Below, in pieces: positions 1 to 41,785 of a DNA stretch of 64,000 bases; the stretch's first letter is position 1; each line of letters starts with the position of its first letter. Source of the stretch: an uncultured Candidatus Saccharibacteria bacterium (lineage in GTDB: Bacteria > Patescibacteriota > Minisyncoccia > Phycocordibacterales > DATDWN01). The notes below the pieces were generated by a model. The model saw only the letters and a program-made list of their open reading frames with translations, searched no databases and was not told where the DNA came from. The DNA is taken from positions 5,350 to 69,349 of the forward strand of contig CAZPGQ010000001.1 of assembly GCA_964586695.1 (NCBI GenBank), written 5' to 3'. Both the position numbers and the translations under genes were made by a program.

Positions 1-2678
1 TTGGAACAGGAGCCGCTCTAGCTACTGCTATAGGTGTTGGTGCTCATGCAATACCTCGACCAGATGGAACTTGGCTCATATTTAATGGTCAATCTGGTGC
101 GGCAGGTGTTAACACTACACAAATATATACAACTGGTGACGGAACAGCTACTGCCGGAGGATCAGAAGGATTAGGTGTTTCTGTTGCTGGTCCAGTTGGT
201 CCAATAACAGCATCTGGAGCAGTTTCATTCCAGAGAGATGACGGTAAGTTTGTTGTTATTGCTGGTGCTGCTACAACAACATCTGCAACAACTGTGGCTC
301 TTTATGATGCAGGATGGGTATCACAGGGTTACTATAGGTCAGAACAAATAGATATGACAGGCGAATTGGATTCAAACACTACTTTGGTTTGGAAGACAAA
401 TGGAATAAAGGGTATATCTGCCGAAGTGAAAACAGCAAAAACTCAAGCTGAATTGGGAACATCTTCACCAAGAGAAATACCTACATCTGGAGAAAATATT
501 CGTGCGTCAGATACTGATAACTGGTTGTCTATTATGTTTAACTTTAAACGAAGTATTCCTCAAGAGACAGGTATCTTCCAGGATGTGGTTTACTCAAATG
601 GTACGGGCAAACTCCGAATGCCGTATCTGCCAATAGATATGCCTGTTATGTATGAGTTTAAGGTTACAAAGGATAAAGATTTGTTGAACCTACAAGCTGA
701 TGGAATATCTATGTTCCGAGTGAATTCATCTGGAGATATATATGCTTCAACTGGTGCAACAATAAACACAAGTGGTGCTGACCTTGCAGAGCGATATACA
801 TCACAAGAGCCATTAGACTTTGGAGATGTTGTGATTATAGATCCTATGAACAACCATGCTGTAAAGAAATCTAAGTATCAGTATCAAACAGATATGGTTG
901 GAGTTGTTTCTACAGATCCTGGATTTGTTTCTGGAGCATACACAGAAAATTCATACCCAATCGGTTTGATCGGTCGTGTTCCTGTAAAGGTTTCAACAGA
1001 GAACGGAATCATCAGAGTTGGTGACTACCTAACTACATCATCTGTTCCTGGACACGCTATGAAGGCTACACTTTCTGGACGAGTTTTGGGTAAAGCATTG
1101 GAGTCAGTTGATCCTGCGAAACTAGTAGATTGTCCTGCAAGTGATTTGTATGTTCCTGGTCGAAAATGTACAACCATAATGATGTTCGTAAACTTGATAG
1201 ATTACGGAGGACAGTCAGTTGATAATGCAATGTCAGATTGGAAGACTCTTAAGACTGCAAAACTTGCACAAACAGCACTTGATTCAGGTCTAGAATTCGC
1301 ATCAACAACAAGTATTGCAACTTCTACAGTATTGGTACCATCTATGACATCACACGACACTGAAGTTCTAAACTTCCTAAGTGATCTTAAGGCTGAAAGA
1401 GCTACTGGTATGTCATCAATGTCAGAAATATTAACAGATAAAGTAAGTGCAATATCACAAATAATTTCTCCAGAAATAATTTCAAGAATTGTTAAATCAG
1501 AAGTTATCGATGGTCTAGAAGTTCGATCTGAGAAAGTAAATACAAAAGCTTTGACAACAGATACTATCTCTGGAAATGGCATGACAATGTCACTTGTAGA
1601 CGGTAAACTTGTTATCCGAGGAACAAAAGTTGTTAGAGCTACAATTTCAACAACTACAGATATAGTTGCAACTTCTACTCTAAGTTCAGAATTGGCAAAT
1701 GCACTATCTGCTCTAGAACTATCTTCTACAACAGAACTACTTGCAACTTCAACAGATATTACTGCATCTACAACAAACATTATTGCATCAACAACAGAGC
1801 CTCTAGCTTCTACAACACCTGTAACAGTTGTTGAAAATGAAGTTGTTGTAAGCTTTGATACAGAAGGAAATGCATACTTTGCAGGTGAAGTTGTTGCAAA
1901 CAAAGTTAGCGCCGGTGCTCTGGCTGTAACAGGAGTTGCAACATTCTCTGGAGGTCTAGAGGTTACATCTATTGGTTCTGCAAGTACAACAGTTGCAATG
2001 TTAAGTGACACAGAATTCTTTGGACGACCATACTTTACATCTGACACAGGAGGCACAGCGGTTGTAAAGAAAGACGCAAAAGAAGTAGAAGTCGTCTTTG
2101 ATAGAGAATATGTAGAGGCACCTATACTGTCTGCTTCTATGGCTTACTCAACATCAACTGACGAGGCAGAAATAGATGCAATGTTCAATGATGATGTTAG
2201 ATTTGTTGTGACAAAGAGAGATACAAAGGGCTTTACTATAAGACTAAACAAACCAGCAGGTCGAGATATTGTGTTCAACTGGATCGCTCTAGCAATAAAA
2301 GATTCAAAAGAGTTTACATCTAGAACTGTAGTGCCAAATGATCCAAATAATACCGCTACAACAACTCCATCTGTGATTGGTGGAACAGGCACAACAACAC
2401 CTGTAACTGGGGGAACTAGCATTTCTACAACAACTAGTGTAACTACTGCCGTTGGCACAACAACGAGTGTTGTGGATCCAAATATTGGAACTACTACACC
2501 AATTGTTATAGATCCAAATTCTATTAATCCAACTCCAGTTCCTCCGCCAACAACTGTTGAAGTCGTTCCCGTTGTAGAAACAACTCCTACTCCTGCAGTT
2601 GATACTACAGTAGCACCACCAGTTGAGACTCCTACAGAAGTTGTTGCTCCAGAACTTGCTCCTACCGCGACGCCATAA
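1..2678 (+). CDS. Large secreted/surface protein, 5' end outside window. Beta-rich N-terminal region, central Ala/Ser/Thr-rich repeat-like region, C-terminal Thr/Val/Pro-rich mucin-like low-complexity tail.
   Basis: The frame starting at nt 3 is open from the window edge (GTGAALATAIGVGAH...) and joins the listed ORF 294..2678. The last ~120 aa are TTTP/VTT/PxP low-complexity. No catalytic motif recognised. Confidence 0.55.
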   Translation, partial: GTGAALATAIGVGAHAIPRPDGTWLIFNGQSGAAGVNTTQIYTTGDGTATAGGSEGLGVSVAGPVGPITASGAVSFQRDDGKFVVIAGAATTTSATTVALYDAGWVSQGYYRSEQIDMTGELDSNTTLVWKTNGIKGISAEVKTAKTQAELGTSSPREIPTSGENIRASDTDNWLSIMFNFKRSIPQETGIFQDVVYSNGTGKLRMPYLPIDMPVMYEFKVTKDKDLLNLQADGISMFRVNSSGDIYASTGATINTSGADLAERYTSQEPLDFGDVVIIDPMNNHAVKKSKYQYQTDMVGVVSTDPGFVSGAYTENSYPIGLIGRVPVKVSTENGIIRVGDYLTTSSVPGHAMKATLSGRVLGKALESVDPAKLVDCPASDLYVPGRKCTTIMMFVNLIDYGGQSVDNAMSDWKTLKTAKLAQTALDSGLEFASTTSIATSTVLVPSMTSHDTEVLNFLSDLKAERATGMSSMSEILTDKVSAISQIISPEIISRIVKSEVIDGLEVRSEKVNTKALTTDTISGNGMTMSLVDGKLVIRGTKVVRATISTTTDIVATSTLSSELANALSALELSSTTELLATSTDITASTTNIIASTTEPLASTTPVTVVENEVVVSFDTEGNAYFAGEVVANKVSAGALAVTGVATFSGGLEVTSIGSASTTVAMLSDTEFFGRPYFTSDTGGTAVVKKDAKEVEVVFDREYVEAPILSASMAYSTSTDEAEIDAMFNDDVRFVVTKRDTKGFTIRLNKPAGRDIVFNWIALAIKDSKEFTSRTVVPNDPNNTATTTPSVIGGTGTTTPVTGGTSISTTTSVTTAVGTTTSVVDPNIGTTTPIVIDPNSINPTPVPPPTTVEVVPVVETTPTPAVDTTVAPPVETPTEVVAPELAPTATP

Positions 2679-15188: not shown

Positions 15189-15525
15189 GGCCAATTGTAC
15201 TCAAGTTATACAAAAAATCAAAGTTGATTATTTTTTGGGAGTTGCTAGACTGTTTTCGGCTGTTCTTTTGCACGAGGAGAACCGCTAATCCTTGAGGAAA
15301 GGAGGACTCGCTTCATGATCGACGAGGATCTGTTCGCGCTGTTCACCTAACCCTGCGGCGACCCAGAGGCCGGGTATGGGATCAAGGGTGAGCCCGGCAG
15401 CGCTCTCGTGCAGCGCACAAACAAACCGGAGACGGACTAGTATCCGTCAGGTGAGGAAGGCCTCACTTAACACATGGAGGATTGAATTAGAGCGGAGGGA
15501 CTGACATGTCCCTCCGCCTTAACTT

Positions 15526-16539
15526 TTATAAAAGAGTTTTTGGAGAGAGACCAAGGTGCTCATAACCAGAAGTTGTAACGGTTCTGCCTCGAGGTGTTCT
15601 GTCTAGAAAACCAAGTTGAATGAGGTATGGTTCATTGAACTCCTCGATAGTTGCTTGTTCTTCTGACATTGCTGCTGCGAGTGTGTTGAGACCAACGGGT
15701 CCACCAGAAAATTTATTTATAATAGTGTGCAGTATGTCACGGTCAGCAGGTGAAAGTCCTACGTGGTCTATGCCCAAAAGTTTCAAAGCTTCATCCACGG
15801 ACTCTTTTGTTAAGTCAGTTTTATTTACCTGAGAATAGTCTCGCGCACGTTTCAAAAGATAGTTCGCTGTTCTGGGTGTGTATCTAGATCGTTTTGCTAT
15901 TTCTTCGCCAGCTTTTTCATTGAGTTCGATACCAAGAATTTTTGATGATCTTTCTATAATTTTTTCGATTTCTTTGTTTGTGTAAAATTCAAGTTTAAAT
16001 ATTCCTCCAGAGAAACGACTTCGAAGAGGGGAGGAAATCATCGCGATTCGAGTTGTTGCACCAATGAGGGTAAACGGTGGGAGTTCCAGCTGTATTGTCC
16101 TCGCGCTCGGTCCTTTGCCAATAATAATATCGAGTGAACCTGACTCCATAGCAGGGTAGAGGACCTCCTCGATAGTTTTGTTGAGTCTGTGTATTTCGTC
16201 TATAAAAAGTATGTCCCCAGCAGAGAGGTTTGTGAGTATAGAAGCTAGGTCGCCGACCTTTTCTATTGCTGGCCCACTTGTTACTTTCATCTGTGCATTT
16301 ATCTCTTTTGCAATAAGGTGGGCAAGAGTTGTCTTACCCAAACCAGGAGAGCCGTAAAATAGTATGTGCTCTGGTGGATGATTTCTTTCTTTTGCAGCGG
16401 TCAGCAGAATCTGTAAATTTTTTTTGATATTTGACTGACCGATATATTCATCCCAACGACTAGGGCGTAGGGTAGTATCGAGAAAAAGTGCGTCTGTATC
16501 GACTGAGTCTTGTGTTTTTTTCTTCGGCTTTGTATCCAT
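15526..16539 (-). CDS. ruvB: Holliday junction branch-migration ATPase RuvB
   Basis: Walker A GSPGLGKTTLAHLIA, the LFIDEIHRL sensor region and the RuvB C-terminal winged-helix region. 337 aa. Confidence 0.9.
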   Translation of the reverse strand: MDTKPKKKTQDSVDTDALFLDTTLRPSRWDEYIGQSNIKKNLQILLTAAKERNHPPEHILFYGSPGLGKTTLAHLIAKEINAQMKVTSGPAIEKVGDLASILTNLSAGDILFIDEIHRLNKTIEEVLYPAMESGSLDIIIGKGPSARTIQLELPPFTLIGATTRIAMISSPLRSRFSGGIFKLEFYTNKEIEKIIERSSKILGIELNEKAGEEIAKRSRYTPRTANYLLKRARDYSQVNKTDLTKESVDEALKLLGIDHVGLSPADRDILHTIINKFSGGPVGLNTLAAAMSEEQATIEEFNEPYLIQLGFLDRTPRGRTVTTSGYEHLGLSPKTLL

Positions 16540-16966: not shown

Positions 16967-18643
16967 CTACTCTTTCTCAATATCTATCACTCTTTTTAGT
17001 TCGTCCATTGTCGTAATTCCTTTCAAAACTTTTAATATTCCATCTTGTCGCAGATCAAGTAGTCCTTGTTTTTCTGCTATTTTTTTAATATCACGTTCAC
17101 TAGCATTTTCTCGCACAACAAGTTCTATATCGTAATCCATTTTTATTGCTTCGTGTATTCCTGTTCTTCCTTTGAATCCTGTCATATTACATTTTTGACA
17201 TCCAGTCGATTGCCATATGTGTGTAGTGTCTATGTCCTTAAGATAATCTTTATCTGATATTGTGCTTACAATATCGTCGATAGTTTTTTTATCACCACCT
17301 TCAAGAGTGATTTGTTTTTTACAATCAGGACAAAGTTTTCTTACAAGTCTTTGTGCCATGGCTAGGTTTATTGCAGAAGATATGATTTTTGCATCAACTC
17401 CAAGGTCGATAAGACGTGGGAATGTTCCTGCTGCTGTATTTGTGTGGAGAGTAGAAAACACAAGGTGTCCAGTAAGAGCAGAGTTTATAGCAATACCGGC
17501 TGTTTCATCGTCTCTTATTTCACCAACCATTATCACATCTGGGTCTTGTCGTAGGGCACTGCGTAGACCTTCTGCGAAGCTGTAATTCTTTTTGTCGTCT
17601 GTTTGGGTTTGAACTATGCCAGGTAGATGGTACTCAATAGGGTTTTCTATTGTAATTATTTTTATTTCCGGCGTATGAATTTTTTTAAGCAATGCGTATA
17701 GTGTTGTTGTTTTTCCAGATCCCGTTGGCCCTGTTAGAAGTACCATACCATTTGGTTTTGATGTTTCGTGGAAAATAACTTCAAGAATTTTTGGATGAAT
17801 ACCAAGTTCCTCGAGTGGAACAGAAATCGCATCTGGGTTCAAAACTCGGAGCACGACAGAGTCATTGTATGCACCAGGCAGTAGGGAAGTTCTGATTTCT
17901 ATTTCACTCTTTGGTAGTTTAATACTAAAGCGACCGTCTTGTGCACCAGAAATATTTAACTTTAGATTTGAAATAAGTTTTATTCTAGAAAGAAGTAGTT
18001 TGTATGTATCCAAGTCGAACTGAAGTATTTCTGTCAGCATTCCATCTAGTCTGTATCGCAAAGTCACATAGTCTTCTTCTGGCTCGAGGTGGACGTCTGA
18101 AGCGTTTGTAGCAAGAGCTCCAGCGATTATGATTTCCATAATTCGTGAAATTCGGTAACTCTTTTTCATTTGTAAAACATCGCCGATTAGGTTCTGTACG
18201 TCTGGTATTGTGTGAACTTGTGCGAGGAATTCCGTGATCTGTTCGTTAGAAATATCCAAAGCTCCAGACTTTGTCTCAAAGGAGTATGAAAGGTCCTTGT
18301 ATCTTTCCCAAACTTTTTTCAAACTGGTTTCTGAAACCATGTAGACTTCTGGCGTATAACCTTTTGCTTTAATTTTTTCTATAGCTTCGACAGTTTTCGG
18401 ATTTTGTGGCGCCAAAGCTCCAACGCTCACGATTTTATTTACTTCATTGAATACTGCTACATTAGCTTCTCTTGATTCTACTTCATTAAGGATTCGAAGC
18501 GAGTCTATATCTAGTGGGGTAACAGTAAGATCGGCATAGGGTACACCATATTTTGATGACATTGCTTGTGCCAGACCCTCTTCCTCTTGTTTCCGAAGTT
18601 CATCTACTCGTTTATTCTGTTTTTCTTCGTCAAATATAACCAT
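16967..18643 (-). CDS. pilB: Type IV pilus / type II secretion assembly ATPase (PilB/GspE family)
   Basis: Walker A LLTGPTGSGKTTTLYALL, GEIRDDETAGIAINSALTGHLVFSTLHTN, a C-terminal tetracysteine motif (CPDC...CQKC) and an N-terminal T2SE_Nter-like domain. Start set to the ATG at 18643; the track start is a GTG. Confidence 0.85.
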   Translation of the reverse strand: MVIFDEEKQNKRVDELRKQEEEGLAQAMSSKYGVPYADLTVTPLDIDSLRILNEVESREANVAVFNEVNKIVSVGALAPQNPKTVEAIEKIKAKGYTPEVYMVSETSLKKVWERYKDLSYSFETKSGALDISNEQITEFLAQVHTIPDVQNLIGDVLQMKKSYRISRIMEIIIAGALATNASDVHLEPEEDYVTLRYRLDGMLTEILQFDLDTYKLLLSRIKLISNLKLNISGAQDGRFSIKLPKSEIEIRTSLLPGAYNDSVVLRVLNPDAISVPLEELGIHPKILEVIFHETSKPNGMVLLTGPTGSGKTTTLYALLKKIHTPEIKIITIENPIEYHLPGIVQTQTDDKKNYSFAEGLRSALRQDPDVIMVGEIRDDETAGIAINSALTGHLVFSTLHTNTAAGTFPRLIDLGVDAKIISSAINLAMAQRLVRKLCPDCKKQITLEGGDKKTIDDIVSTISDKDYLKDIDTTHIWQSTGCQKCNMTGFKGRTGIHEAIKMDYDIELVVRENASERDIKKIAEKQGLLDLRQDGILKVLKGITTMDELKRVIDIEKE

Positions 18644-18712
18644 GATTTTGTCTAAATATAATATCACAGAAAAGCCCTTAAAATAGGGCGTTTTTAACAG
18701 CTATTTTATAGC

Positions 18713-18741
18713 TTGACAAATACACTCAAATGGTGTATTAT
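18713..18741 (+). promoter_or_regulatory. Near-consensus sigma70 promoter (TTGACA, 17 nt spacer, TATTAT) driving GC-rich cassette 1
   Basis: TTGACA at 18713-18718 and TATTAT at 18736-18741, followed by an AAGGAGG RBS at 18749-18755. Confidence 0.5.
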
Positions 18742-18761
18742 TATAGGTAAGGAGGATGCCC

Positions 18762-19574
18762 ATGAGCATTCTGAATCGTACGGCCATTGTGGCCATGATT
18801 GTGTTCTTTGTAATGAGTTCGTCGTCTTTTGCTCAGGGCAAGTCTCCGGAGCAGGTCAGGGCGGAAAAGGCTGCCGCAGTTTTCGTCGCGGCAGTCGACG
18901 CTGCAGCAGCACAGACTGTCTCTGACAAGAAATCGGACAAGAAGAAGGAGACGGAGGCAGAGATGTTTGTTCGTCTCTCAACCCCAGTCGAAGGAGAGAG
19001 TGAGATGGACACGCGAAAGCGTGAACGCGCACTCAAGATCCTTCTCGACAACCGTGAGAAGGAGGCCACCAAGAGGAGGCAGAAATCCCTCTCTCTTGTC
19101 GAGCGTCAGGCCGCAGCCCAGGTTGAGGACGATGTCAAGAGGGAGGCCAAGGAAGACAAGAAGGCCTCCGACAGGCGTAGCATGCTCGGCCTTTCCTGTG
19201 GAAGGGATGAGGAAGGCGAACTCATCCCCACCGACAGTGTCGAGGTAAGTGATGACGCTGTTCAAGACTACCATAGAGACGTTCACTCGCGTCTCGTGGT
19301 GGTCAACCGGACACCGTTTGCCGTCGACGAGATTCGTCTCGTTGCTGGTAGGGGTGAGTCCGTGCAGGTCAAGAACCTGTGCCCGAACGGAAGGCTGAAC
19401 CTGATCCAATGGATCGGGTGGAGTATGAATACGTACGTTGAGTACGTGGCCACGATCCGAGATGGTTCTGGTCGGGTCAGCCTTTCCTACTCACCCCGGA
19501 TCAACTTGCAAGCTTGTCAGTTTGCAATGTGCCAGAGAGAATTCTCTGGCGTCTGGGAGATACAAGCAAGGTGA
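18762..19574 (+). CDS. GC-rich (about 55% GC) secreted protein of unknown function. Signal peptide, then a charged Ala/Lys/Glu-rich region, then a Cys-containing C-terminal domain.
   Basis: Composition differs sharply from the flanking sequence. Strong RBS 6 nt before the ATG at 18762. Signal peptide MSILNRTAIVAMIVFFVMSSSSFAQG. The high GC makes every other frame open, so the other ORFs listed in this region are artefacts. Confidence 0.55.
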   Translation: MSILNRTAIVAMIVFFVMSSSSFAQGKSPEQVRAEKAAAVFVAAVDAAAAQTVSDKKSDKKKETEAEMFVRLSTPVEGESEMDTRKRERALKILLDNREKEATKRRQKSLSLVERQAAAQVEDDVKREAKEDKKASDRRSMLGLSCGRDEEGELIPTDSVEVSDDAVQDYHRDVHSRLVVVNRTPFAVDEIRLVAGRGESVQVKNLCPNGRLNLIQWIGWSMNTYVEYVATIRDGSGRVSLSYSPRINLQACQFAMCQREFSGVWEIQAR

Positions 19575-19596
19575 GTGTCTCCCGAAAACAAGCACA

Positions 19597-19646
19597 CCCC
19601 GCGGGATTGTCCCGCGGGTAGGGGTCAGCAGATGCTGGCCTTTTTT
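19597..19646 (+). terminator. Palindromic GC motif plus rho-independent terminator closing GC-rich cassette 1
   Basis: CCCGCGGG-ATTGT-CCCGCGGG, then the hairpin GGTCAG-CAGATG-CTGGCC followed by TTTTTT. Confidence 0.6.
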
Positions 19647-19666
19647 CATACTCAAATATTTAAAAT

Positions 19667-20122
19667 ATGTTAATATCCAAACAAATGAAATACATTTCAA
19701 ACTCGCTCGAAGAGACACAGAAAATCGCAGATGATTTTATAAAAAACATTTCACCAAAAAGTGACACGGCTTTTGTTGTTGGTTTGTCTGGAAATCTTGG
19801 CGCTGGCAAAACGGCTTTTACAAAATGCATTGCAAAAAGTCTTGGCGTTGAAGAAACAGTAACTAGTCCAACTTTTGTTATAGAAAAAATATACGAATTA
19901 GAGAACCAAAAGTTTTCTCATCTTATTCATATTGATGCATATAGGTTAGAAAGTGGGGAGGAGCTACTTAACCTTGGTTGGCAGAGGATAATTTCAGATC
20001 CAAAAAATATGATACTTATTGAATGGCCAGAAAAAGTCTCTAGTGTTATGCCAGAGCACACAAAAATGAGTCTAAAGGCTCTAGAAGTAGTTGGAAGTCA
20101 TGAGATAGAGATAGTTGAGTAA
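19667..20122 (+). CDS. tsaE: tRNA threonylcarbamoyladenosine biosynthesis ATPase TsaE (YjeE)
   Basis: P-loop GLSGNLGAGKT, SPTF, and HIDAYRLESGEE, all typical of TsaE. A second in-frame ATG at 19685 is an alternative start. Confidence 0.8.
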   Translation: MLISKQMKYISNSLEETQKIADDFIKNISPKSDTAFVVGLSGNLGAGKTAFTKCIAKSLGVEETVTSPTFVIEKIYELENQKFSHLIHIDAYRLESGEELLNLGWQRIISDPKNMILIEWPEKVSSVMPEHTKMSLKALEVVGSHEIEIVE

Positions 20123-29353: not shown

Positions 29354-29425
29354 GCTCTCGTAGTTTAATGGATAGAATGTCGGCCTGCGAAGCTGGCGAT
29401 CCAGGTTCGATTCCTGGCGAGAGCA
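29354..29425 (+). tRNA. tRNA-Arg with anticodon GCG (hand-folded), no CCA encoded
   Basis: Acceptor GCTCTCG/CGAGAGC. D arm with GG. Anticodon stem-loop TCGGC-CTGCGAA-GCTGG, giving U33 and GCG at positions 34-36. T arm CCAGG-TTCGATT-CCTGG. Discriminator A. Arg identity elements C35, G36 and A73 are present. The acceptor and D arm are nearly identical to the tRNA-Arg(TCT) at 34976-35047. Confidence 0.6.
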
Positions 29426-29437
29426 CAGTAAAATTAT

Positions 29438-39437: not shown

Positions 39438-39929
39438 ATGGTTATAGTTTCGTGTAAATTATGCAGTAAAGAGTTTGGTGTTAAACCATCCTGGATTAAG
39501 TTGGGTTATGGAAAATATTGTTCTAGAGTTTGTCAGTATGAAGGAAGAAAAAGTGGAAAAGTTATTGCTTGTTCTGTTTGTGGAAAGGAATCATATAAAA
39601 ATAATAAAGCTATAAACGGTTCAAAAAGTGGTAAGTATTTTTGCGGTAAGTCCTGCCAAACTGTTTGGCGAAATGCTGAATTTGTTGGTAAAAAGCATGC
39701 AAATTATATTAACGGAAATGCTTCTTATAAAAGTATATTAGGTAGACATAAAATTCCTAGAATTTGTGGATTATGTGGGACTAGGGATTTAAGAGTTTTG
39801 GCGGTTCATCATATAGATGAAAATCATGTTAATAACGTATTAGAGAATCTAGCTTGGCTTTGCCACAATTGCCATTTTCTAGTGCATCATGATAAGGTAG
39901 AGAAGGCAAGATTTCTTGCCAGCAGGTAG
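39438..39929 (+). CDS. HNH endonuclease with N-terminal Cys-rich zinc-ribbon repeats
   Basis: Four or five CxxC pairs at the N-terminus. C-terminal LAVHHIDENHVNNVLENLAWLCHNCHFLVHH is an HNH motif. A TATATAAT box 7 nt from the ATG. Confidence 0.7.
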   Translation: MVIVSCKLCSKEFGVKPSWIKLGYGKYCSRVCQYEGRKSGKVIACSVCGKESYKNNKAINGSKSGKYFCGKSCQTVWRNAEFVGKKHANYINGNASYKSILGRHKIPRICGLCGTRDLRVLAVHHIDENHVNNVLENLAWLCHNCHFLVHHDKVEKARFLASR

Positions 39930-39933
39930 ACAT

Positions 39934-40007
39934 GGTGGCTATAGTGTAGCGGCTCTGCACGAAAGTTTGTGGAACTTTAAGTTCCGGTTCGACCCCGGAT
40001 AGCCACC
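39934..40007 (+). tRNA. tRNA-His (anticodon GTG) with encoded G-1 and C73
   Basis: G-1 then GTGGCTA/TAGCCAC acceptor. Anticodon arm AAAGT-TTGTGGA-ACTTT. T arm CCGGTTCGACCCCGG. Discriminator C. No CCA. Confidence 0.8.
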
Positions 40008-40078
40008 CTGCGATGAATTTCTCTAAAAAATCCTTACCGAGTAAGGATTTTTTAGTTCTATCTTGGTATACTTTTGGC

Positions 40079-40603
40079 ATGAAACAATCCATCTTAATTG
40101 CGGGAATAAGTGGGTCAGGAAAATCGGAAGTTAGCCGAAGATTAAAGAATTCTGGTTATGAGACTTGTGATATGGATAGCATGGAGGGGTTATGCTTAAT
40201 GGTTGATAAAAAAACTGGACTACCTACTCCATATGATAATGATAATGATCTGGAAAAAATTGAAAAAATGTATTGGCTTTATAAAAAAGACAAATTGGAA
40301 GAATTAATTATTAGTCAAAAAAGTGAACTGGTTTTTTATTGCGGAGCACCAAATAACTTAGAAGAAATAGTATCTTTATTTAATAAAGTAATTTTGTTAG
40401 TTGCTAATCCAGATATTATTCGACAAAGATTGGTGGATAGGAAAGATAATGGATTCGGGAAGTCGATTGAAGTCCAAAATTATATATTGGAGAGAAAGGA
40501 AAAAATTGAACAGAGTCTTGTGGCACAAGGTGCTTTGGTTGTGGATGCAAATCAAGACATAGAGGTCGTTGTACAGAAAGTGATTGAATTTTCTAGAGTC
40601 TAG
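40079..40603 (+). CDS. P-loop NTPase / small nucleoside(-monophosphate) kinase-like protein
   Basis: Walker A ILIAGISGSGKSEV and a Walker B-like LLVANPD. 174 aa. Specific substrate not assignable. Confidence 0.5.
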   Translation: MKQSILIAGISGSGKSEVSRRLKNSGYETCDMDSMEGLCLMVDKKTGLPTPYDNDNDLEKIEKMYWLYKKDKLEELIISQKSELVFYCGAPNNLEEIVSLFNKVILLVANPDIIRQRLVDRKDNGFGKSIEVQNYILERKEKIEQSLVAQGALVVDANQDIEVVVQKVIEFSRV

Positions 40604-40680
40604 TACAAGATTGAAAATCAGGAATGTTGATTGTGGCGTCATTTTTAAGCTCAAACACAGTTCTAACTTCCTCTACTACG

Positions 40681-40732
40681 CCACCCCAGATACAACAACC
40701 CGCGCAAGCGGGCTTTGTTGTATCTGGGGTGG
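40681..40732. repeat. 52-nt near-perfect hairpin (18-bp outer arms enclosing a CCCGC-GCAA-GCGGG inner stem) at the left edge of GC-rich cassette 2
   Basis: CCACCCCAGATACAACAA-CCCGCGCAAGCGGGCT-TTGTTGTATCTGGGGTGG. No flanking T-run on either strand, so it is not a classical terminator. Confidence 0.6.
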
Positions 40733-40805
40733 CTATGGAAATGTTTAGAGTTTCATTTATATTTTGTGACCTTTATAAAATGTTTTATTTAGGTGTTCAA
40801 TACTA

Positions 40806-40834
40806 TTGACAAATGTCATTTTTTTTGTTATTAA
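40806..40834 (+). promoter_or_regulatory. Near-consensus sigma70 promoter (TTGACA, 17 nt spacer, TATTAA) driving GC-rich cassette 2
   Basis: TTGACA at 40806-40811 and TATTAA at 40829-40834. GGAGG RBS at 40861-40865, 6 nt before the ATG at 40872. Confidence 0.5.
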
Positions 40835-40871
40835 ACTAGGTAGAGCCAATCCTGGCTACTGGAGGTTTGTA

Positions 40872-41732
40872 ATGCAGAAGTATGTGCTGATTTTTGCCGT
40901 AGTTTGCTCGCTGTTCCTTGTCGGTTGTGGCGGAGGGAACCCCTCAGCCCCGACACGTGGGACAATCACGTCGATCGTTGGGGGGCAACCTTCCAACGAG
41001 ATCGCTGGTCCAATCCGTCCCACGGTCCAACCATGGACGGTGGAACTGAGGGGAGGGCAGGCTGGGAAAGTCTGCTCGGGCCCAGCCAACAACCTCGACA
41101 GCCAGCCTTCGAGGTATATCATCAGGGTTGCTGATGCAGGTCCAGTTGAGTGGGAGCCGTTGGGTTTCGTACACTACAGCACGCATCCGGGGTGCGAACC
41201 GACGGTGGAAAACCCATCACCGTTGGAGGTCATTGGGCAGACAACTTTCCTAGCCCACAGCAGTGGGGAATTCACAGTCCCAACTAAGGGGGAAGGTCTA
41301 AGCTGTGGGCGCGTCCAGTTGGACGTGCAAGGCTTCGACAAGAAGACAAGGAAGCCAATTCCCGAACTCTTTTTTGTTGGCGTTGTGTTTGACTCGGGCA
41401 AGGAATGCCCGAGACCAGAGCCAAAGGTGGAAGAGATCCCACCTCCTTGTGTGGTGGGGGATGTCTCTGTAATTCGTGTTGGGGAAGATATCTTGTCCCC
41501 AACTGGACTGACTGTCCGACGGGCCGTCAAATTCAGCGGAAGTGGAGCCGTCACAGTAAACTGGGGAGACGGGTCGCCATCACAGACGGTAATGACCGGA
41601 GCGGTCATTACCCATGTGTTTCTAAGGCCAGTGAAGAACACTGGCCCAGACTTTAGGGAGTATGTCATCTCCCTCTCAGGGTGCGGTAAGACTGTCACAC
41701 AGTTTGCCGTTAGGGTGACCCAAACTCAGTAA
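40872..41732 (+). CDS. GC-rich (about 58% GC) lipoprotein of unknown function
   Basis: Signal peptide with lipobox MQKYVLIFAVVCSLFLVGCGGG. Gly/Pro-rich beta-type sequence with 8 Cys. Composition is sharply different from the flanks. The ORFs on other frames and strands here are GC artefacts. The track start at 40806 is the TTG inside the -35 box. Confidence 0.55.
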   Translation: MQKYVLIFAVVCSLFLVGCGGGNPSAPTRGTITSIVGGQPSNEIAGPIRPTVQPWTVELRGGQAGKVCSGPANNLDSQPSRYIIRVADAGPVEWEPLGFVHYSTHPGCEPTVENPSPLEVIGQTTFLAHSSGEFTVPTKGEGLSCGRVQLDVQGFDKKTRKPIPELFFVGVVFDSGKECPRPEPKVEEIPPPCVVGDVSVIRVGEDILSPTGLTVRRAVKFSGSGAVTVNWGDGSPSQTVMTGAVITHVFLRPVKNTGPDFREYVISLSGCGKTVTQFAVRVTQTQ

Positions 41733-41751
41733 TCTTGGGATTGGGGTTGAG

Positions 41752-41785
41752 GGCAGGCGCGACAAGCGTCTGCCTCTCTTTTTAT
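41752..41785 (+). terminator. Strong rho-independent terminator closing GC-rich cassette 2
   Basis: GGCAGGCG-CGACAAG-CGTCTGCC (8 bp with one G-U) followed by TCTCTTTTTAT. Confidence 0.65.

Follow-up and report, generated by a model that had tools for sequence, protein, structure and literature searches.

A GC-rich single-gene unit beside pilB

The stretch of DNA analysed here (64,000 nucleotides, hereafter the window) carries a gene, designated X, that lies beside pilB, which encodes the type IV pilus ATPase, with the two genes transcribed divergently. Its coding sequence (CDS) has a GC content of 0.551 (GC1 0.59, GC2 0.42) and a GC3 of 0.642, compared with means of 0.363 ± 0.049 and 0.292 ± 0.076 over 59 long ORFs in the window. 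Measured per 400 nucleotides, the GC content passes across X from 0.378 through 0.565 and 0.547 to 0.370, with sharp borders. The initial annotation had described a GC-rich coding region in an AT-rich background, and these profiles bear it out; the outlier status of X is shared only with the ORF at 40806-41732. Its remark that all six frames are open holds to the extent that each frame has ORFs, but these are only 41-143 amino acids long and no frame is continuous.

The promoter, Shine-Dalgarno (SD) sequence, 3ˊ palindrome and terminator that had been proposed were all recovered (Table 1), in keeping with a single-gene unit for an exported protein with near-optimal expression signals. The promoter, whose spacer contains the inverted repeat ATACAC-N7-GTGTAT, is the single exact match to TTGACA-N16-18-TATNAT within the 64 kb. 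The chance expectation for such matches is 0.27 and at least one appears in 23 of 100 shuffles, and thus a single match is not improbable in itself. The 75 nucleotides upstream are ~97-99% identical across four closely related lineages, versus 74-87% for their X coding sequences, and a TTGACA-17-(G)TGTATAAT-type promoter precedes X in nearly all species that carry the gene. The SD of the relatives reads AGGAGGTG, which is the full complement of the anti-SD. An additional ATG (18756) lies directly against the SD and is an improbable start codon.

The short hairpin between pilB and the promoter is found at the equivalent place in lineages L007, L011, L013, L015, L022, L030 and L041, and the T/A-rich stretch that follows it resembles an UP element. 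Downstream of the coding region, only the loop of the 3ˊ UTR hairpin varies among the four close lineages, and a CCGCGG-containing hairpin occupies the equivalent position in L015, L022, L027, L030, L041 and L049. Promoter, SD and terminator are conserved throughout the clade, in keeping with high expression of X.

Table 1. Features of gene X and of the second GC-rich unit (positions are those of the window)
Feature	Position	Strand	Remarks
Short hairpin GCCCT-TAAAAT-AGGGC	18670-18695		A-run/T-run on either side; between pilB start and X promoter
Sigma-70-type promoter	18713-18741	+	-35 TTGACA 18713-18718, 17-nt spacer, -10 TATTAT 18736-18741
Shine-Dalgarno AAGGAGG	18749-18755	+	6 nt upstream of ATG 18762
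CDS of protein X, 270 aa	18762-19574	+	Body of predicted hyper-structured mRNA; stop 19572-19574
Signal peptide MSILNRTAIVAMIVFFVMSSSSFAQ/G	18762-18836	+	Signal-peptidase-I type, predicted from sequence and family alignment
Charged helical stalk, residues about 29-141	18846-19184	+	AlphaFold2 helices 29-51, 65-73, 81-109, 112-141
C-terminal domain, about 115 aa	19188-19571	+	Predicted eight-stranded β-sandwich
3ˊ UTR hairpin CCCGCGGG-ATTGT-CCCGCGGG	19598-19618	+	8-9 bp, all G·C; stem invariant in four lineages
Intrinsic terminator GGTCAGCA-GAT-GCTGGCC then T6	19623-19646	+	Conserved; one compensatory pair and wobble changes (helix 37)
Second unit of the X kind	40806-41784	+	Lipoprotein CDS with own promoter, SD and terminator
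Second unit, promoter TTGACA-17-TATTAA	40806-40834	+	Followed by 5ˊ UTR hairpin
Second unit, SD GGAGG	40861-40865	+	
Second unit, lipoprotein CDS, 286 aa	40872-41732	+	Lipobox LVGC; GC 0.54, GC3 0.57
Second unit, terminator	41749-41784	+	

A fast-evolving exported protein

The signal peptide, the charged region rich in Ala, Lys, Glu and Arg, and the Cys-containing C-terminal domain that had been described at the outset are evident in both the sequence and the family alignment. In the protein from the window, the signal peptide ends in SFA/QG, without Cys and hence without an L-x-x-C lipobox, and a lipobox Cys is present at this place in many relatives and in the second GC-rich unit. The stalk carries the family motif RLSxPxEGE(S/T)..R.RALxxL, and the C-terminal domain has four invariant residues (Cys146, Cys252, Cys257 and Trp265) and three that are near-invariant (Cys207, His175 and Asn182). 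An AlphaFold2 model based on a 21-sequence alignment reaches a pLDDT of 82.6, with values of 85-95 in the stalk from residue 61; with four sequences alone, confidence in the C-terminal domain was too low (pLDDT about 35) for the model to be of use there.

Searches of Pfam, NCBIfam and PDB sequences returned no match to X, and Pfam none for any of 44 family members, in agreement with the earlier view that its C-terminal domain belongs to no recognisable family. Nothing significant was retrieved from the solved and viral structures searched. The best structural matches of the C-terminal domain, by two methods, are the membrane- and lipid-binding β-sandwiches of the actinoporin, aegerolysin and Nakanori types, although the resemblance is weak. 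In the model, the head of the protein is a four-Cys, disulfide-bonded β-sandwich, with a tentative likeness to the actinoporin/Nakanori lipid binders.

The ORF is intact at all loci and is under purifying selection (dN/dS 0.13-0.18), and the protein sequence diverges very fast, to identities as low as about 20%. A role at the cell surface or in host contact, as had been suggested, is plausible for a fast-evolving extracytoplasmic protein that has kept its linkage to pilB and has a weak likeness to lipid-binding β-sandwiches. We infer that X may bind a membrane or envelope surface, either that of the cell itself or that of a host, possibly together with the pilus. Highly expressed signal-peptide proteins have been described in Paceibacteria by Kuroda et al. 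(PMC10936435), none of which could be matched to X. Our literature search found no description of the X family or of whole-CDS folding such as that presented below.

Conservation and age of the locus

The order pilB(−)/X(+)/tsaE/polA is found in about 30 species of Paceibacteria/"Zambryskibacteria", where X is, with few exceptions, GC-rich. Specifically, the slot and the GC excess are shared by the four close lineages, by the distant L015, L019, L101 and L103, and by about 24 further GTDB species. For example, X of L015 has a GC3 of 0.74 versus 0.33-0.37 in its neighbours. The only AT-rich member, from L088, has neither the consensus promoter nor excess structure. Two libraries of 5.8 billion and 1.84 billion proteins contain only about 23 homologues of X, all with its architecture and none outside the clade, and every homologue with a readable locus lies in the slot (P0007, P0009 and P0010 were left out because of a short contig or no DNA). 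No mobility genes, integrase, tRNA target, adjacent tRNA or flanking repeats were found at the X locus. The unit was also compared with an integron gene cassette. It is a single unit with its own promoter between housekeeping genes, there is no integrase among the ORFs of the window, and the 3ˊ palindrome, when tested as an attC site, proved to be a simple 8-bp G·C hairpin.

PolA identity falls to 55-70% among the X-bearing species, and the dS of 1-2 for neighbouring genes indicates that synonymous sites have turned over. In the two deeper comparisons the dS of X is below that of its neighbours (0.95 versus 1.9-2.0 and 0.77 versus 0.97-1.14), as would fit constraint on its synonymous sites. 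Third-position changes between strong (S) and weak (W) bases were counted on three branches, giving 14-17 S-to-W versus 1 W-to-S on the branch of the window, 15 versus 6 on that of L007, and 12-13 versus 14-18 on that of L013. The pooled counts imply an equilibrium GC3 of about 0.6 for X, compared with 0.17-0.35 for the adjacent tsaE. The GC-to-AT trend in the lineage of the window looks as if constraint were relaxing, and its sister L013 runs in the opposite direction.

The divergence of X is decoupled from that of the genome. PolA and X are respectively 92% and 31% identical in L015, and 90% and 74% identical in L011. In addition, the slot holds different lipoprotein families in different species, and no homology between X and the shorter slot lipoproteins was detected by iterated HMM searches.

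X is best explained as an old, native and position-fixed gene of Paceibacteria ('Zambryskibacteria'-like Parcubacteria) and not as a recent import. The initial annotation had raised the possibility of recent acquisition from a high-GC partner, with homologues to be sought in high-GC taxa and presence or absence of the unit to be compared at orthologous loci. Neither comparison supports it: the two protein libraries hold no homologue beyond the clade, and X sits between pilB and tsaE in all close lineages. GC-rich homologues at the same locus in every related low-GC genome examined are precisely what had been named in advance as an argument against foreign origin. The lack of mobility genes or flanking repeats at the locus points the same way. 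The third-position changes are not uniformly AT-directed and differ from branch to branch.

Predicted folding of the X transcript

The minimum free energy (MFE) of the predicted fold of the X transcript lies far below that of composition-matched shuffles (z = −9.8), and the coding region alone scores −7.9 against dinucleotide shuffles. The coding region retains scores of −7.1 against shuffles of codon order and −4.9 against shuffles of synonymous codons. Over all genes tested, these two shuffles give scores from −4.9 to −12.2, and a self-complementary codon repertoire or a by-product of the protein sequence can be ruled out as the source of the signal. Similarly, 20 GC-matched control segments (−0.12 ± 0.93) rule out an artefact of GC content. 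Scores for the neighbouring genes range from +1.4 to −2.8.

Excess folding extends to 16 of the 18 X-family genes (−3.8 to −11) and to six of nine unrelated genes that occupy the slot (−4.4 to −8.0). However, some GC-rich slot genes show no such excess (L098, −0.5; L087, −0.2; L073, −1.3; L075, −0.9), and structure is therefore not the whole explanation of the composition. The signal is specific to the sense strand of X, which is more stable than the antisense by 40-57 kcal/mol, and the fold includes 162 G·U cells versus 28 A·C.

Comparative analysis yielded a consensus fold for four orthologues with 266 pairs, in which 93% of cells are paired. It contains 19 compensatory pairs, compared with 7.5 ± 2.1 in shuffled alignments (0 of 500 reach 19) and 4-9 in slid controls, in a nucleotide-level alignment limited to four sequences from which the tested structure was itself derived. 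The consensus MFE of −264 compares with −176 ± 9 in alignment shuffles (z = −10.3). Two metagenome scans supplied no further close orthologues for the covariation analysis, and the loci included no other group that could be aligned at the nucleotide level.

When the whole window is scanned for folding, the only regions to emerge are known RNAs (RNase P and tRNAs), hairpins of terminators and the GC islands. X has no match in Rfam 15, whether the gathering threshold is applied or a limit of E ≤ 1. The possibility that X is a non-coding RNA rather than a gene was rejected on the basis of this result, the dN/dS values and the confident protein model. The ribosome-binding region is 0.39 unpaired versus 0.35 in the body of the transcript, a marginal difference that is awkward for simple maximal translation.

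A second GC-rich unit in the window

The second unit (Table 1) is similar in design to X, although iterated HMM searches detected no homology between the two. Its MFE z-scores are −7.3 (dinucleotide), −8.2 (codon-order) and −9.6 (synonymous). The single orthologue, from L014, has a GC3 of 0.54 in a locus of 0.35 GC and a z-score of −6.2. A candidate 'att-like' remnant of tRNA-His upstream of this unit was dismissed as unconvincing because the match is only 7 nucleotides long.

Explanations for the composition of X

The unusual composition noted at the start is real. What was missed is the predicted RNA-like folding of the coding region, which best explains it. The GC-richness of X is probably due not to foreign origin but to tight folding of the mRNA as predicted across dozens of related species. 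We assign a probability of roughly 0.55 to the explanation that this composition results from selection for an mRNA that folds stably and is probably long-lived and heavily expressed. Under this explanation, the whole coding region would form dense and mostly local G·C-rich helices, with even the synonymous codons chosen and ordered to that end, and two further hairpins would cap the 3ˊ end of the transcript. X would then be GC-rich because its transcript is selected for folding, which is the same reason that the genes for rRNA, tRNA and RNase P form GC islands in AT-rich genomes. Such folding could render the mRNA unusually long-lived and resistant to nucleases, permitting a cell with low transcription and few ribosomes to maintain production of a plentiful surface or secreted protein.

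Ribosomal protein genes and rpoB, which are presumably highly expressed, are not GC-rich, indicating that high expression alone does not require the design of X. The raised GC1 and GC2 of X could be accounted for equally well by an ancient foreign origin.

A bolder, tentative form of the folding explanation, and one that we consider rather unlikely, is that Paceibacteria possess 'coding structural RNAs', meaning genes fixed in position that encode exported proteins and whose messages are selected over their full length for folding of ribosomal grade and serve an RNA function beyond coding. Were this so, selection on folding would override genomic base composition and even shift amino-acid content. 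Candidate jobs for such RNAs would include an ultra-long-lived message that survives dormancy or nucleases, localisation or scaffolding at the pilus base, or delivery of RNA to a host.

It is distinctly unlikely that the transcript of X, besides being an mRNA, acts as a structural or regulatory RNA (a scaffold, decoy, localisation signal or exported RNA) and that its folding is selected for that second role rather than for stability. In its z-scores (−8 to −11) and its conserved consensus fold, the transcript does match bona fide structured RNAs, the two units group with RNase P and tRNAs in the scan of the window, and the sequence of the 3ˊ CCCGCGGG hairpin is invariant beyond the needs of a generic stabiliser. 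However, Rfam offers no match even at a permissive threshold, and neither the primary sequence nor specific helices are conserved beyond close relatives, which fits better with generic foldedness. Moreover, the unrelated genes in the X slot share the excess folding.

Derivation from a higher-GC donor such as a host or phage, whether recently or once in the ancestor of the clade without subsequent amelioration, is improbable. All three codon positions are GC-shifted (0.59, 0.42 and 0.64), as in a protein from a GC-richer genome, the compositional borders are sharp, and the third positions decay towards AT in the lineage of the window (14-17 to 1). Against this, X is GC-rich at one locus in some 30 species that are far enough apart for synonymous sites to have turned over, and synteny refutes the recent version outright. 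L013 gains GC and the implied equilibrium GC3 far exceeds that of tsaE. Neither a homologue outside the clade nor an integrase, tRNA target or flanking repeats were found. Horizontal transfer also does not predict excess folding that outlasts synonymous shuffles.

We consider it equally improbable that the composition arose at a recombination hot spot, where the slot acts as a replaceable allele cassette exchanged by homologous recombination in the flanks and enriched in GC by biased gene conversion. This proposal would accommodate the decoupled divergence of X in L015 and L011, the highly conserved flanks (promoter, terminator, pilB and tsaE), the different lipoprotein families found in the slot and the GC-ward substitution bias of L013. 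Nevertheless, biased conversion would not end exactly at the start codon and the terminator, and the GC3 of tsaE remains 0.27. Sense-strand-specific folding and an optimised synonymous arrangement are likewise not among its predictions. Recombination could coexist with the mRNA-folding explanation as a source of hypervariability, though not of structure.

Finally, diversification of a surface protein through GC-rich inverted repeats in the DNA, by cruciforms, template switching or vls-like gene conversion, would suit a hypervariable surface or secreted product encoded by a GC-rich island with many short inverted repeats in an AT-rich genome, but is highly improbable given that the window and the related loci contain no silent cassette arrays or paralogues, that dN/dS values of 0.13-0.18 are not diversifying, and that the folding is clearly stronger for the sense RNA and depends on G·U pairing, which has no counterpart in DNA and corresponds to A·C mismatches on the other strand.

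Implications

X provides a concrete counter-example to the equation of compositional outliers with horizontal transfer, as it is among the most positionally conserved genes of its clade. The folding analysis suggests that selection on mRNA structure can be strong enough to raise GC content by about 20 points, to organise synonymous codons and to shift amino-acid usage. If confirmed, X would be among the most extreme natural cases of structure optimisation over a whole coding sequence. The case is relevant to the question of how ultra-small cells maintain abundant proteins with few ribosomes and polymerases, and to natural design rules for stable mRNAs. Genes of this kind could be sought in CPR genomes with a simple screen for GC islands that contain an intact ORF and have a folding z-score far below zero. 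The X family itself, being uncharacterised, fast-evolving, surface-located or secreted, and permanently linked to a type IV pilus ATPase gene, is a prime candidate for envelope or host-contact functions in Parcubacteria.

Comparison with known systems

The vlsE locus of Borrelia is a GC-rich locus for a variable surface lipoprotein in the AT-rich genome of a host-dependent bacterium. X shares these traits, being a GC-rich island whose surface (lipo)protein product varies strongly, in a bacterium that is likewise low in GC and host-dependent. Unlike vlsE, it has no silent-cassette array or sign of segmental gene conversion, it is under purifying selection, and its signal lies in the folding of the sense RNA. 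Horizontally acquired islets share with X the atypical GC content and codon usage, the sharp borders, a single accessory-looking gene and an exported product. X differs from them in being syntenic and compositionally stable across a class-level clade, with a native promoter and terminator and without a donor or mobility signature.

Dual-function RNAs such as RNAIII, SgrS and SR1 encode small peptides within RNAs that are mainly regulatory. X resembles these in that a coding transcript has extensive conserved structure, which is predicted in its case, and departs from them in that an ORF of 270 aa takes up the transcript. The genes for rRNA, tRNA and RNase P RNA form GC islands in AT-rich genomes, and GC content has served there as a screen for structured ncRNAs. 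X has the attributes of such RNAs: its GC island is sharp, its MFE z-score is strongly negative, compensatory changes accompany its predicted consensus structure, and the signal is specific to the sense strand. Unlike them, it has no Rfam match and is translated: the ORF is intact in all species, dN/dS is 0.13-0.18, and the product has a signal peptide and a fold that is predicted with confidence.

A further parallel is with the mRNAs of E. coli lpp and ompA and of S-layer proteins, which are long-lived and encode abundant envelope proteins, with the S-layer mRNAs carrying stabilising 5ˊ stem-loops. In these systems, hairpins in the RNA are considered to shield the message such that few transcripts yield much protein. 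X likewise stands as a unit of one gene, its product is an exported or lipid-anchored envelope protein, and its promoter and SD are very strong. The known examples rely on discrete hairpin stabilisers in the UTRs and have a coding region of normal composition, whereas in X, whose message would be stabilised by its folding, the entire coding sequence lies about 20 GC points above the genome, and the synonymous sites carry a predicted folding z-score comparable to that of rRNA.

The X cassette and its product

Each of the cassette elements proposed in the initial annotation (promoter, Shine-Dalgarno sequence, coding region, palindrome and terminator) is present in the sequence. Across the gene, here called X, GC content in 400-nt windows moves from 0.378 through 0.565 and 0.547 to 0.370. 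The ORF has a GC content of 0.552 and a GC3 of 0.645, compared to means of 0.363 ± 0.049 and 0.292 ± 0.076 for 59 long ORFs in the window, among which the only comparable case (40806-41732; GC 0.543, GC3 0.573) lies in a second GC-rich unit, cassette 2.

Features of the window discussed in the text
Feature	Position	Strand	Description
GC-rich patch	15273-15530		GC 0.56; between yebC and ruvB, both minus strand; terminator-like hairpin at ~15490-15530
−35 element	18713-18718	+	TTGACA; read in 18400-19900
−10 element	18736-18741	+	TATTAT; 17-nt spacer after −35
Shine-Dalgarno	18749-18755	+	AAGGAGG
Predicted initiation hairpin	18753-18772		AGGAUGC-CCAUGA-GCAUUCU; start codon in loop, part of Shine-Dalgarno paired
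X coding region	18762-19574	+	270 aa; ATG at 18762, stop at 19572-19574
Palindrome	19598-19618	+	CCCGCGGG-ATTGT-CCCGCGGG
Terminator	19623-19646	+	hairpin and T6
tRNA-Arg	29354-29426		anticodon GCG
HNH-like ORF	39438-39929		163 aa, Cys-rich; adjoins tRNA-His
tRNA-His	39935-40008		
AAA_18 kinase-like gene	40013-40603		
Hairpin	40676-40733		GCCACCCCAGATACAACAA…TTGTTGTATCTGGGGTGGC; long, near-perfect, GC-rich; directly 5′ of cassette 2 promoter
Cassette 2	40806-41784		single gene; TTGACA-17-TATTAA promoter, 5′ UTR hairpin, GGAGG, terminator
Cassette 2 coding region	40872-41732		286-aa lipoprotein; lipobox LVGC; GC3 0.57

The X promoter is the sole exact match to TTGACA-N16-18-TATNAT in the window, where the chance of such a match is not low (0.27 expected; at least one in 23 of 100 shuffles). 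Nearly all species carrying X share this promoter (TTGACA, 17 nt and a (G)TGTATAAT-like −10 element), a AGGAGGTG Shine-Dalgarno sequence, and a 3′ end with one or two GC-rich hairpins followed by a run of T nucleotides. In the four close lineages, identity is ~97-99% over the 75 nt preceding the ATG and 74-87% over the coding regions. The predicted hairpin that presents the start codon is invariant in these lineages, with no substitutions that could show covariation; it may modulate initiation.

Searches of Pfam, NCBIfam and PDB sequences with X yielded nothing significant, and Rfam, which identified RNase P and tRNAs elsewhere in the window, gave no match to the two GC islands with E values of up to 1 allowed. 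Among 5.8 billion proteins, a word-indexed search returned only four clusters (100, 86, 83 and 69% identity). In codon alignments of X with these homologues, dS values are 0.43, 0.77 and 0.95 and dN/dS is 0.13-0.18, indicating that the protein is under purifying selection. X is a real protein-coding gene of a family not previously known.

When the C-terminal domain was used as the query of an exhaustive profile search, ~19 more distant relatives were added. All are organized in the same way. A signal peptide or a lipobox comes first, then a helical, charged segment bearing the motif RLSxPxEGE(S/T)…R.RALxxL, and then a C-terminal domain of ~115 aa in which Cys146, Cys252, Cys257 and Trp265 are invariant and Cys207, His175 and Asn182 nearly so. 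The AlphaFold2 model, built from a 21-sequence alignment, has an overall pLDDT of 82.6 (above 85-95 from residue 61 on) and predicts helices at residues 29-51, 65-73, 81-109 and 112-141 and then, at residues 175-267, a β-sandwich of eight strands. The C-terminal domain has a weak fold likeness to actinoporins (6.0-6.5), to the aegerolysins OlyA6, RahU and Cry34 (5.6-5.9), and to pneumolysin domain 4 and TssJ lipoproteins (5.2-5.4).

An old gene in a conserved slot

The four close homologues are each bordered by pilB on the minus strand and by tsaE-polA on the plus strand, and their GC contents are 0.54-0.57 and their GC3 values 0.61-0.71, against 0.35-0.39 for the flanks. The same slot holds family members of only 25-31% identity (P0012 in L015/L016, P0011 in L019/L020, P0014 in L101 and P0020 in L103), and in L015 the contrast is larger still (GC3 0.74 versus 0.33-0.37). 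Using polA as a handle, we retrieved 80 species-level reference genomes, which place the organism in the Parcubacteria/Paceibacteria near ‘Ca. Zambryskibacteria’; the closest reference is Parcubacteria bacterium C7867-006 (PolA 91% identical). An X-family HMM detects a slot member in ~24 of the 80. These have GC contents of 0.475-0.615 and GC3 values of 0.45-0.78 in loci of 0.33-0.44 GC, with the single exception of L088 (GC3 0.155, genome GC 0.30).

The L088 gene (L088:4828-5487; GC 0.29) is the only family member with native AT-rich composition, and has neither the consensus promoter nor excess RNA structure (z −1.65, where z is folding energy relative to shuffled sequences and negative values denote more structure). 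It is a natural control, although one case only, that ties composition, promoter and structure together.

Where no X homologue is detectable, in ~30 further and more distant species, a plus-strand gene is likewise present between pilB and tsaE; it encodes a small signal-peptide or lipobox protein, is GC-richer than the genome and has a GC3 of up to 0.84. Loci L023, L029, L031-L033, L036, L051 and L054-L094 carry unrelated lipobox proteins of 100-300 aa here; the GC3 maximum is that of L036, and many of these genes have strongly negative folding z. The conserved entity seems to be the slot rather than the protein family.

The initial annotation had proposed an exported protein, possibly involved in host interaction, that may have been recently acquired from a high-GC partner. 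Export and a host-interaction role are plausible. Recent acquisition is unsupported, because GC-rich homologues occupy the same locus in related low-GC genomes, from the four close lineages through to distant members, an outcome that the initial annotation itself had listed as counting against such an origin. No homologue outside the clade, mobility gene or flanking repeat was seen for X. The gene is old and not a recent import.

X evolves far faster than its neighbours. Identities to the window for PolA and X, respectively, are 98% and 83% in L007, 92% and ~31% in L015, and 71% and ~25% in L019. Divergence is also decoupled from that of the genome, in that L011 (PolA 90%, X 74%) and L015 have similar PolA identities but widely different X identities. 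This pattern suggests occasional allele replacement within conserved flanks, or episodic acceleration. Between L015:4182-5063 and the X gene of the window, the promoter-proximal and terminator flanks are still similar. Polarized third-position changes vary by branch (GC→AT and AT→GC, respectively: 14-17 and 1 for the window, 12-13 and 14-18 for L013, 15 and 6 for L007), and the implied equilibrium GC3 of the adjoining tsaE is 0.17-0.35. Thus, X composition is not merely decaying toward that of the genome.

Predicted structure of the X message

The 901-nt X transcript folds at −404 kcal/mol, compared to −324 ± 8 for dinucleotide shuffles (z = −9.8). Within the window, the coding regions of X and cassette 2 score −7.9 and −7.3, against +1.4 to −2.8 for the control genes tsaE, pilB, polA, ruvB and an ABC transporter; the X antisense strand scores −5.2. 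Strong folding extends to 16 of 18 X-family coding regions (−3.8 to −11.0; L088 and L098 fall outside this range, the latter at −0.47), to six of nine unrelated slot genes (−4.4 to −8.0) and to the cassette 2 orthologue (−6.2). polA controls from ten species centre near −0.8. High GC content as the source of the signal is ruled out by 20 pilB/polA segments of relatives with GC contents of 0.46-0.57, which give −0.12 ± 0.93 (minimum −2.2).

The excess folding survives codon-order shuffles (z −4.9 to −8.4) and synonymous-codon shuffles that keep protein and codon usage (−4.9 to −12.2), which argues that the arrangement of synonymous codons is tuned for pairing; polA and pilB score −2.2 and +1.0 under these stricter nulls. 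In all four orthologues the sense strand is more stable than the antisense by 40-57 kcal/mol (consensus energies −264 and −200), and the sense fold includes 162 G·U cells versus 28 A·C. This asymmetry points to RNA and not DNA.

Covariation was assessed in the four transcripts that are alignable at the nucleotide level. Their consensus fold comprises 37 helices, most of them local, with a total of 266 pairs; 93% of cells are paired and the structure conservation index is 0.68. Pairs altered on both sides number 19, compared to 7.5 ± 2.1 in shuffles (none of 500 reach 19) and 4-9 in slid controls. The consensus energy compares to −176 ± 9 for column-shuffled alignments (z = −10.3).

A folding scan of the whole window in 240-nt steps has a mean z of −0.56 ± 1.7. 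RNase P, tRNA loci, a few terminator hairpins, a small GC patch (15361-15600) and both cassettes stand out, the cassettes as runs of consecutive scan windows.

Other elements of the window

Cassette 2 is not homologous to X, and its coding region is predicted to be structured to the same level (synonymous-shuffle z −9.6). Its one database orthologue, in L014, is 75% identical and GC-rich. In L014 the equivalent of the upstream hairpin is directly 3′ of tRNA-His and paired with the tRNA 3′ end. Because the AAA_18 kinase-like gene separates tRNA-His from the hairpin in the window, its position suggests an insertion, with a shared string of only 7 nt. The neighbouring Cys-rich ORF has a weak HNH endonuclease match, and L014 has a similar ORF at another place. 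The ORF of the window may represent a mobile element of the homing type within the variable region 5′ of cassette 2.

The patch between yebC and ruvB carries AAGGAGG followed by a 10-codon ORF (MIDEDLFALFT), folds with z −5.4 and has no Rfam match. It is missing in L015, where the yebC-ruvB gap is 10 nt, and otherwise occurs only in the same-strain contig L001. This patch could be an sRNA or leader-peptide element.

Bacterial tRNA-Arg more usually has the anticodon ACG (read as ICG). The GCG anticodon found here may bear on decoding of CGY codons, which are frequent in the GC-rich genes.

Interpretation of the GC-richness

X codes for an exported protein, holds a fixed position across the clade and evolves fast, and its message has a predicted fold like that of a structural RNA. 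The simplest reading would join composition and structure: stable helices require G·C pairs, and the GC-richness of X would have the same cause as the GC islands that structural RNAs form in AT-rich genomes. Literature searches yielded no description of the X family or of the structured-message phenomenon; the paper closest to the subject reports no more than high expression of signal-peptide proteins in Paceibacteria (PMC10936435).

The design combines the strongest possible promoter and Shine-Dalgarno sequence with a body predicted to be paired and two hairpins at the 3′ end, and we infer that such folding makes for a long-lived mRNA and a high output. Counting against a simple version of this proposal, the ribosome-binding region is barely more open than the body (unpaired 0.39 versus 0.35, p = 0.02), excess folding is absent from some GC-rich genes of the slot, and ribosomal-protein genes are not of such design. 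Among known systems, lpp, ompA and S-layer genes produce long-lived messages for abundant envelope proteins, and the X message appears to resemble an extreme form of these mRNAs.
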